Positions 19,250 through 21,368 of a stretch of DNA of 64,000 nt are shown here, piece after piece. Positions within the stretch are counted from its first letter, which is position 1. Every line of letters begins with the position of its first letter. The notes under the pieces were generated by a model that did not search any database, was not told where the DNA came from, and saw only the letters and a list, made by a program, of their open reading frames with translations. The position numbers were made by a program, and so were the translations under genes. The DNA is from Smithellaceae bacterium (lineage in GTDB: Bacteria; Desulfobacterota; Syntrophia; Syntrophales; Smithellaceae), in the NCBI GenBank assembly GCA_028693285.1, contig JAQUVQ010000009.1, positions 165 through 64,164 on the forward strand. The letters are read 5' to 3'.

Positions 19250-19785
19250 GTCATTAATTTTTTCAACTTTCCGGCGAAAATGTCATAGGTCCGCTCATCA
19301 AATAAAACATGGCGAATCAGCTTCAGCTCCGCGCTGCTGCGCGCAAACTCGAGGCAGGTTTGAAGCGCCAGGGAGGCGGCTTCGTGCACCGGGTATCCGT
19401 AAACCCCGCAGCTGATGGCCGGAAAGGAGATGCTGCCGACGCCTTTTTTGACGGCCAGCTTGAGGCTGTTTCGGTACGCCGAAGCCAGCAGGGCCGCCTC
19501 GCCTCGTCCTCCGCCGCGGTACACGGGGCCGACGGTATGGATGACATAGCGGGCTTTGAGATTGCCGCCGGTCGTGATGACGGCCTCGCCGACGGGACAG
19601 CCGCCGATTTTGCGGCATTCGGCCATGATGGCGGGTCCTCCGGCGCGGTGAATGGCCCCGTCAACGCCCGCGCCGCCCGAAAGTGTGCTGTTGGCGGCGT
19701 TGACGATGGCGTCGGTTTCTTCCTCGGTGATGTCTGCGCAAACGATTTCGATCACGGTTTGGTTCACTGTGATTTGCATGCTCAT
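19246..19785 (-). CDS. macro domain protein (O-acetyl-ADP-ribose deacetylase, YmdB-like)
   Basis: 179 aa with AIVNAAN, GGGVDGAIHRAGG and SISFPAISCGVYGYP. Only the last 179 codons of the 464-aa track ORF are credible. The ATG at 19785 overlaps the upstream stop. Confidence 0.88.
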   Translation of the reverse strand: MSMQITVNQTVIEIVCADITEEETDAIVNAANSTLSGGAGVDGAIHRAGGPAIMAECRKIGGCPVGEAVITTGGNLKARYVIHTVGPVYRGGGRGEAALLASAYRNSLKLAVKKGVGSISFPAISCGVYGYPVHEAASLALQTCLEFARSSAELKLIRHVLFDERTYDIFAGKLKKLMT

Positions 19786-21368
19786 TCCTCCGCGGGGATG
19801 GGGGTTCCCTCTCCGTAAACCAGCATCCGGTAGGTTTTTTCGATACGGTCCCAGTTTTCTTCGCGGTCCATCGACCAGTATCGTCCGATCACGGACACGA
19901 CCTGCCCGATTCCCAGCGAGCGGCATTTTTCCTCCACCTGCCGAATATAGCGCGCGCCGCTTTCGGCCTGCTCGCCGCGCCGCCCCAGCATGGAATGAAG
20001 ATACAGCTCGGAGACGCCCTGCTCTGCAGCCATGTCCATCAGGGCAAACAGATGTTCGATGGACCCGTGCGAGCTGAAAAAAGACACGATGCCCATGAGG
20101 TGCAGCGCACGGCGGTTTTGCCGGGCCAGGTTCATGGCGCGCGTGAAAGCCGGGTTTCGGTGAAAATCCCTGCGGGCAATCGACTGATCGATCATCAGGC
20201 GGTCGGAATAGATCCGCCGGCCCGCGCCGATGTGCAGATGCCCCGCTTCGGAGTTGCCCACGGTCCCGGCGGGAAGCCCCACGGCCAAACCGGAGGCGGC
20301 CAGCCGCGCATGGGGGTAATCCCGAAGCAGCCGGTCCATCACCGGCGTTTCGGCGCAGGCGATCAGGTTGCCCTTTTGGCTGTCGCAAAGCCCCCAGCCG
20401 TCTAAAATAAGCAGAAGCAGACGGGAAGCGGGGGCGAGGGAAGGAGGCTTTTCCTGAATCAAAGACGATCCGGTCATGGAATCGGGGACGGGCAGGCCCA
20501 GCAAATCCAGAATCGTCGGCGCGATGTCGGTCAGTTCTCCTTCGGGTTTCAGGGCGGGTTTTTGTTCCGGGTGCAGAAGAATGAAGGGCACGGGGCTGTC
20601 CGTGTGTCCGGTATCCACGCCGCCGTCCGGATACAGCCATTTTTCCACGGTGCCGTGATCCGCGGTGACGATGACGGTCATGTTCCGGCGAAGCGCCTGC
20701 TCCACGAGCAATCCGGCGTGCCGGTCCACCGCCGAAACCGCCCGAAGGATCGCCGGTTCGTTTTCAATATGGCCGACGACGTCCACGTTCGGGAAGTTGA
20801 CGACGATGAAACGGCAGGAGGGGTCCTGAATTTTGGCCCCTGCCGCGCGCGTGATTTCATCGATGGACATTTCGGGCGCTTCGTCGAACAGCCTGACGTC
20901 CTTGCGCGTCGGGACAACGATTCGTTCTTCTTTCGGCAGGGGATCGCTTTTCTTCCCGTTGAAGAAATAGCTGACATGCACGGCTTTTTCCGCTTCCGTT
21001 ATTTTTGCCTGCGCGAGGCCGTGCGCTGCGATGATGTCGCTCAGAGTGTCGGAAAGGACGCCCTGGGGAGGAAATGCGACGTCGGCGTTCAGCCCTTTGG
21101 AATACTCGATCATGGTGGCGAAGTGCACGGGGAGCGCCGGGTGAACGGGGAATTCCCGGAAGTTTTCTTCCGTGAAGCTGCGGGTCAGTTCAATTTCGCG
21201 CTCTCCGCGAATATTGTAGAAAATGATGGAGTCACCCGGCTGGATTCTTCCCAGCGGGGCCTGCTTTTGATCGACCAGAACCAGCGGAAGGAGCGTTTCG
21301 TCTTCCTTTCCCTGCGCGTAGGCGCCAAGGACGGCCCGGGACATGGGAAATGTCTTTTCAGAGCTCAT
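19782..21368 (-). CDS. gpmI: 2,3-bisphosphoglycerate-independent phosphoglycerate mutase homolog, circularly permuted domain order
   Basis: aa 1-303 match the C-terminal part of canonical iPGM ([35 protein letters not shown]). aa 317-528 match the canonical N-terminus ([35 protein letters not shown]). Confidence 0.8.
   Translation of the reverse strand: [528 protein letters not shown]

Follow-up and report, generated by a model that had tools for sequence, protein, structure and literature searches.

The question raised by the locus described here is whether a gene whose product resembles cofactor-independent phosphoglycerate mutase (iPGM), but whose motifs follow each other in a swapped order, is a genuine natural circular permutant of that enzyme, and whether such a protein would still interconvert 3-phosphoglycerate (3PG) and 2-phosphoglycerate (2PG). 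iPGM is a glycolytic enzyme known from textbooks and well studied structurally, and it is a target for anti-parasitic and antibacterial drugs. iPGMs are monomers, their catalysis depends on two domains joined by two hinges, and the transferase domain of the canonical chain is inserted into the phosphatase domain. The gene in question lies on the minus strand (19782..21368) of a 64,000-nucleotide stretch of Smithellaceae DNA (the window); it is complete, ends with a TGA stop codon at 19782-19784 and consists of an intact open reading frame (ORF) for a 528-residue protein. Here we show that this ORF is a genuine circular permutant of the iPGM family, as had been proposed from the sequence alone. 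We put the probability that its product is an iPGM-family enzyme, permuted, with both domains, the hinges and the active site kept, at roughly 0.88.

Several lines of evidence support the permutation. Firstly, in Pfam profile searches both domains of the protein scored well over their gathering scores, with positions 1-130 of the iPGM_N profile matching residues 393-522, toward the C-terminus, and positions 62-250 of the Metalloenzyme profile matching residues 99-292. Likewise, TIGR01307 matched the protein in two stretches, profile positions 215-504 corresponding to residues 11-304, and the summed score of both stretches was 459.7 bits, against a cutoff of 330.65. Secondly, pairwise comparison with the Geobacillus stearothermophilus enzyme (PDB 1EJJ, 511 residues) gave two swapped stretches, one pairing residues 14-304 with 221-509 (E = 1e-59) and the other pairing residues 317-522 with 6-211 (E = 1.5e-57). 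The canonical chain order (N-terminal phosphatase part, inserted transferase domain, C-terminal phosphatase part) was not recovered in any comparison; two non-colinear stretches were obtained every time, and the colinear alignment to a canonical iPGM that would speak against a permutation was thus not found. Thirdly, Smith-Waterman alignments to four canonical enzymes in single copy scored about 510 and covered half of the query, whereas the alignment to a tandem-duplicated canonical enzyme, which the sequence-only reading had suggested as a check, scored about twice as much (~933-980) and ran as one colinear alignment from query 12-521 to subject 222-727. Because the score against the doubled enzyme is far above that of the single copy and that of shuffled queries (maximum 54), we consider the permutation real, clean and far beyond chance. 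The protein thus has both marks of a natural permutant, namely colinearity with a tandem-duplicated homolog and a cut site that is conserved in orthologs from independent genomes.

The cut maps to canonical positions ~211-221, inside the phosphotransferase domain, where it had been predicted to fall. Residues 1-304 (20457..21368, minus strand) correspond to canonical ~211/221-510 and comprise the second transferase part (residues ~1-95, with R54 and R57 equivalent to R261 and R264), hinge 2 (approximately residues 96-100), and the C-terminal phosphatase part, which carries K128 (K336) and the metal ligands D196, H200, D237, H238 and H255. The linker, residues 305-316 ([12 protein letters not shown]; 20421..20456, minus strand), joins the ancestral C-terminus to the ancestral N-terminus and lies where the sequence-only reading had located it. 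Residues 317-528 (19785..20420, minus strand) correspond to canonical 6-~215 and comprise the N-terminal phosphatase part with D323 (D12) and S373 (the catalytic S62), hinge 1 (approximately residues 385-392), and the first transferase part, in which H434, R464, R496 and R502 are equivalent to H123, R153, R185 and R191, and G465 replaces D154. With the cut placed in the transferase domain and the phosphatase domain's old ends joined, the phosphatase domain forms one continuous segment (residues ~96-390) and the transferase domain is split (residues 1-95 and 391-528); both inter-domain hinges are kept, and the nesting of the domains is the reverse of the canonical one. In the G. stearothermophilus enzyme, we take the phosphatase domain to span 1-76 and 311-511 and the transferase domain 77-310, which is consistent with the Pfam boundaries found here.

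The predicted structure is in line with this layout. AlphaFold2, run on the family alignment, gave a model with a mean predicted local distance difference test (pLDDT) score of 84.9 and a predicted template modelling (pTM) score of 0.79, the linker having pLDDT values of 79-89. When this model was compared with the PDB using Foldseek, the top 22 matches were all iPGMs (E down to 4e-16) and nothing else had an E value below 1e-3, so that the predicted fold is the two-domain fold of iPGMs. The alignments cover about 300 residues with a TM score of ~0.45, because the aligner depends on sequence order and the protein is permuted. With the hinges, the two-metal site, the Ser nucleophile and eight of nine substrate contacts kept, the enzyme would work by the iPGM mechanism: the two domains would close on a small phospho-hydroxy-acid, most likely 3PG/2PG or a very close analogue; the phosphoryl group would pass to the metal-activated Ser373, the acid would reorient in the transferase domain, and the phosphoryl group would then be transferred back. 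In this arrangement, the variable linker of about 12 residues connects the old N- and C-termini, both of which lie in the alkaline-phosphatase-like domain, and the new termini open in the transferase-domain loop at canonical ~211-221. The permutation most likely arose via tandem duplication or fusion, after which both ends would have been trimmed.

The residues that such a mechanism would use are largely in place. The seven metal ligands and nucleophile named in the sequence-only reading, D323, S373, D196, H200, D237, H238 and H255, correspond to D12, S62, D403, H407, D444, H445 and H462 of the G. stearothermophilus enzyme and are invariant in 40 orthologs, so that the two-metal site and the Ser nucleophile are both present. 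Residue roles were taken from a secondary source for that enzyme (PMC3886921), which gives nine contacts to 2PG/3PG: S62, H123, R153, D154, R185, R191, R261, R264 and K336. Eight of the nine are present and invariant (S373, H434, R464, R496, R502, R54, R57 and K128). Altogether, 15 catalytic or binding residues are invariant in the 40 orthologs, down to 64% identity.

The permuted architecture reaches well beyond Syntrophales. Representatives numbering 1.84 billion were searched exhaustively with phmmer, and among the best 150 matches 14 were permuted, all at the same site. For the tree, permuted sequences were de-permuted and aligned with 125 canonical representatives (neighbour-joining, NJ; 200 bootstraps). 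The Syntrophales proteins grouped, with 100% bootstrap support, with eight others (P0121, P0129, P0136, P0153, P0154, P0167, P0235 and P0262), and the sources of this group, which we call clade A, include Ca. Desulfofervidus auxilii, Limnochordia (Bacillota), a metagenome-assembled genome (MAG) of Pseudomonadota, and Anaerolineae. A profile search added 120 further full-length colinear members. Clade A shares the derived motifs SSHG (from GVHS), RGERE (from RxDRA) and ESEK (from ETEK), together with the replacement of D154 by Ser or Gly, and the permutation is a synapomorphy of this multi-phylum clade. Four other permuted proteins (P0130, P0132, P0137 and P0241) have every canonical motif and are dispersed among the canonical enzymes. 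Monophyly of all permuted sequences was recovered in 0.5% of the NJ replicates, so that a single origin is not supported, an NJ tree being weak evidence on such deep divergences; the tree weakly suggests recurrent, independent permutation at the same permissive loop. The P0130 and P0132 genes, at L089 5556-8626 and L091 4041-5585, have canonical motifs and fall outside clade A. The P0130 gene overlaps pgi by 4 nucleotides in a region that is otherwise housekeeping, and a canonical-motif protein in this position suggests that the permuted topology is compatible with a role as glycolytic phosphoglycerate mutase (PGM).

The gene neighbourhoods of clade A members in other lineages are of a different kind. 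On Anaerolineae-type contigs (L081 5505-12276; L082 5435-12486; L083 4786-11022; L084 4746-13518), the permuted gene lies in an operon with a LacI gene, two to three HAD genes, an apgM-like gene (PF01676 plus PF10143), one or two genes for PRK-family (PF00485) kinases of about 400 residues, an RpiR/SIS regulator gene, and genes for an ATP-binding cassette (ABC) importer with a 611-residue double permease. The gene set suggests an as yet undescribed pathway for an organophosphate or a sugar acid. One protein of these operons (P0397, 935 residues; L084 7001-9808) is a fusion of a permuted iPGM (residues 13-522) to an apgM-like part (residues 535-935) that is 72% identical to the product of the separate gene on L081, which implies that two enzymes of the alkaline phosphatase superfamily work together. 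In another clade A lineage, the permuted gene ends an importer operon of related type (LysR, substrate-binding protein, permease, ATPase); in Limnochordia, it neighbours a PGM_PMM gene; and in the nearest sister of the Syntrophales group it stands alone. On Ca. Desulfofervidus-type contigs (L087 389-6817; L088 1-7044), it overlaps the 3' end of a gene for a protein of more than 2100 residues with a PPDK_N (phosphoenolpyruvate/pyruvate-utilising) domain and P-loop kinase-like regions. A permuted iPGM is also embedded at residues 3862-4375 of the 5027-residue predicted protein P0234, possibly through a fusion or an error in gene calling; the idea that P0234 is a permuted iPGM fused to the giant PPDK_N protein found next to the Desulfofervidus-type gene was dropped, as no homology of its N-terminal part to that protein was detected.

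The window probably comes from a MAG, and an assembly artefact, in which a tandem duplication of a canonical gpmI gene was collapsed or mis-joined, was weighed as a rival explanation. The sequence-only reading had named this possibility and had called for a survey of relatives. Searching 5.8 billion proteins yielded more than 120 protein clusters, drawn from assemblies of NCBI, JGI, ENA and Logan, which match the query colinearly over the full length (64-100% identity, 519-567 residues). Among the GTDB species genomes, we found 287 relatives, and the best 80 of these 287 are all from Syntrophales (Smithellaceae and Syntrophaceae); among them are the isolate Syntrophus buswellii DM-2, whose genome is complete, and several MAGs with closed chromosomes assembled from long reads. 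Colinear orthologs, with 62-90% identity, are thus present in at least 80 Syntrophales species, and architecture and cut site are identical across these independent assemblies and assemblers. Furthermore, synteny is conserved, no iPGM remnants were found in the flanks of the permuted gene, and the linker at the junction evolves as coding sequence, its length varying from 9 to 13 residues among orthologs. The two cores have a column identity of 77-80%, compared with 31% for the linker and 36-54% for the new termini, and variability of linker and termini is what is expected where old ends were joined and new ends opened in a loop. On this cross-genome conservation we reject an assembly artefact, whose probability we regard as negligible. 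The same data bear on whether the protein is a decaying or inactive relic that keeps recognisable motifs only, as the missing D154 and the diverged SDGGVHSH motif (see below) could indicate. The ratio of nonsynonymous to synonymous substitution rates (dN/dS) is 0.13-0.19 against eight orthologs and every ORF is intact, which, together with the 15 invariant residues and the confidently predicted fold, makes a pseudo-enzyme very improbable; a pseudogene is rejected on the dN/dS values and the invariant catalytic residues. From the sequence, the earlier judgement that the gene is functional and not a wreck therefore appears to be correct.

More difficult to decide is the substrate of this permuted iPGM-family enzyme, and several observations weigh against an unaltered PGM. 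The curated profiles disagree, since TIGR01307 is above its cutoff but NF003897 scored 388.4 bits, far short of its cutoff of 862. The set of nine phosphoglycerate contacts is incomplete, since D154, which is conserved in 98% of the 125 canonical representatives, is replaced by the invariant Gly465 in the Syntrophales proteins, and clade A as a whole has Ser or Gly there. Gly also takes the place of D151 and Arg that of G152, hence the DGRD motif reads GRRG in Syntrophales, and SDGGVHSH has become SFFSSHGS in the window protein. The clade A genes outside Syntrophales mostly lie in non-glycolytic operons, and the three archaeal-type iPGMs of Syntrophus aciditrophicus could supply PGM activity. 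As to the origin of the permutation, no tandem-duplication intermediates were found among the over-long matches P0229, P0213, P0180, P0259, P0123 and P0143, which are canonical-order enzymes with unrelated extensions. The claim that all metal and catalytic residues that could be placed are retained thus holds for metal ligands and nucleophile, but it overlooked the change of D154 to Gly465 and of SDGGVHSH to SFFSSHGS. Similarly, fold and residues bear out the assignment to the iPGM family, whereas the name phosphoglycerate mutase exceeds the evidence, because D154 is lost family-wide and sister lineages have the gene in non-glycolytic operons. Foster et al. (2010) reported that S. aciditrophicus is without cofactor-dependent PGM and has one bacterial-type iPGM and three archaeal-type iPGMs; a permutation is unmentioned there. 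The single bacterial-type iPGM is presumably the ortholog of the window protein. The role of housekeeping PGM may fall to this protein or to the archaeal-type enzymes.

The alternative to be weighed here is that the protein has been neofunctionalised, that is, that the same permuted fold and chemistry serve a phosphomutase or phosphatase acting on another small organophosphate, for instance a phospho-sugar acid or a phospho-hydroxy-acid other than phosphoglycerate. This contests only the assignment of 3PG/2PG as substrate. In its favour are the derived pocket motifs of clade A (SSHG, RGERE, ESEK and the change at D154) at 100% bootstrap, the Anaerolineae-type operons with HAD, apgM-like, PRK and ABC genes and the one apgM-like fusion, and the lineage with the LysR-type importer operon. 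Syntrophales proteins have, moreover, gained an extra invariant Arg463 while losing both Asp residues of DGRD; their gene is operonic with a macro-domain gene and not with glycolytic genes, three archaeal-type iPGMs are at hand in S. aciditrophicus, and in NCBI the proteins are called no more than 'alkaline phosphatase family protein' or just 'hypothetical protein'. Against it, the eight invariant phosphoglycerate contacts include every Arg and Lys, the motif [14 protein letters not shown] of Syntrophales is nearly canonical, more so than its counterparts in the rest of clade A, the gene has a housekeeping and not a catabolic context in Syntrophales, and the data name no alternative substrate. 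Judged by sequence, the odds that the window protein is a plain 3PG/2PG mutase seem to us about even, and neofunctionalisation falls somewhat below that. Extending the idea to clade A as a whole, as a new iPGM-derived enzyme family with a remodelled pocket that acts on an organophosphate other than phosphoglycerate, is more tentative again, and we would sooner doubt it than adopt it. If it were true, the Anaerolineae-type members would act with the apgM-like partner, HAD phosphatases and PRK-type kinases on a substrate imported by the ABC system, the Syntrophales member would be coupled to the macro-domain protein, and the permutation would mark the birth of a new activity and not a neutral rearrangement.

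In the best 80 GTDB relatives, on which the following counts are based, the neighbourhood of the gene has the conserved order carD-nlpD-pcm-orf131 and, divergently, the permuted iPGM gene, the macro-domain gene, a PAS histidine kinase gene in some genomes, and dciA. The macro-domain gene (19246..19779, minus strand; 177 residues, PF01661 E = 7e-46) lies directly downstream of the permuted iPGM gene in the window and in 75 of the 80 loci. Its ATG is located 2 nucleotides past the iPGM stop codon and its GGAGGA ribosome-binding site lies inside the 3' end of the iPGM gene. The macro-domain gene is translationally coupled to the permuted iPGM gene, with a possible functional link to, for example, ADP-ribose-phosphate metabolism. 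Between the macro-domain gene and the DciA gene (PF05258; 16749-17261, minus strand) lies a gene for a PAS/histidine-kinase/receiver hybrid of 669 residues (17240-19249, minus strand), which is present in only 23 of the 80 loci and so is an insertion that varies while the rest of the neighbourhood is conserved. On the other side, the 164-bp divergent intergenic region (21369..21532) between the permuted iPGM gene (minus strand) and orf131-pcm-nlpD-carD (plus strand) presumably holds the promoter; an Rfam scan found no element in this region or near the gene. The 131-residue orf131 (21533-21928, plus strand), directly upstream of pcm, is without a Pfam match and is kept in 71 of the 80 loci. 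No further PGM-type, apgM, PRK or HAD operon genes were found in the 64-kb window. Elsewhere, the window contains a bacterial RNase P RNA of class A (52966-53341, plus strand; 334 bits) and a tRNA gene (51411-51483, plus strand), as well as genes for a HipA-family kinase (4645-5910, plus strand), a response-regulator/SpoIIE (PP2C) phosphatase (6432-7655, minus strand) and the bifunctional IspDF (25350-26576, plus strand), all three unrelated to the permuted iPGM.

How does the protein compare with known systems? With canonical GpmI/GpmM (TIGR01307; PF01676 interrupted by PF06415; PDB 1EJJ/1O98), it shares about 40% identity in both halves, the two domains, both hinges, the two-metal site, the Ser nucleophile, eight of nine substrate contacts and the predicted fold. 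It differs in being permuted at ~211-221, with a contiguous phosphatase and a split transferase domain, in having Gly for D154 and D151 and SFFSSHGS for SDGGVHSH, and in the pairing of its gene with a macro-domain gene. The other permuted iPGMs, both those of clade A (for example HDD45277.1 / UniRef A0A7C0Y5T5 and MDI9450044.1) and P0130, P0132, P0137 and P0241, have the same cut site within a few residues and a short variable linker, and clade A also shares SSHG, RGERE, ESEK and the loss of D154; on the other hand, they are 36-51% identical to the window protein and occur in other contexts (HAD/apgM-like/PRK/ABC operons, a PGM_PMM neighbour, the giant PPDK_N protein), and the P0130-type proteins, unlike the window protein, have retained DGRD and GVHS and are found next to pgi. 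A precedent for natural circular permutation in a phosphomutase is PGM3/AGM1 from the superfamily of alpha-D-phosphohexomutases, in which the permutation relocates the segment with the catalytic phosphoserine loop while its three-dimensional position is unchanged (PMC5570346). That fold is unrelated, however, and there about 60 residues are permuted within one domain, whereas in the window protein about 40% of the chain is permuted and the nesting is inverted. ApgM (TIGR00306, PF10143) and DeoB share the metalloenzyme core and the metal ligands and give weak matches to residues 176-305 (33.1 bits against a cutoff of 320 for TIGR00306, with no PF10143 match; 29 bits against 256 for DeoB), so that the protein does not count as an ApgM; their cap domains differ from that of the window protein, and ApgM-like proteins were seen only in other phyla, where they share an operon with clade A members or are fused to them.

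A full-text search of the literature found no description of a permuted iPGM, and the proteins described here are a permuted, multi-phylum subfamily of a known enzyme that is without description in the literature searched. A natural permutant with inverted nesting, in which hinges and active site are kept, is a ready-made test of how chain connectivity relates to domain closure and folding. Databases give these proteins varying names ('iPGM', 'alkaline phosphatase family protein', 'hypothetical protein'), so a PGM may be wrongly counted or missed when the metabolism of syntrophic Syntrophales, Anaerolineae and Limnochordia is reconstructed. Finally, the pocket changes shared by clade A and the non-glycolytic operons of its members raise the possibility of an undescribed organophosphate pathway.

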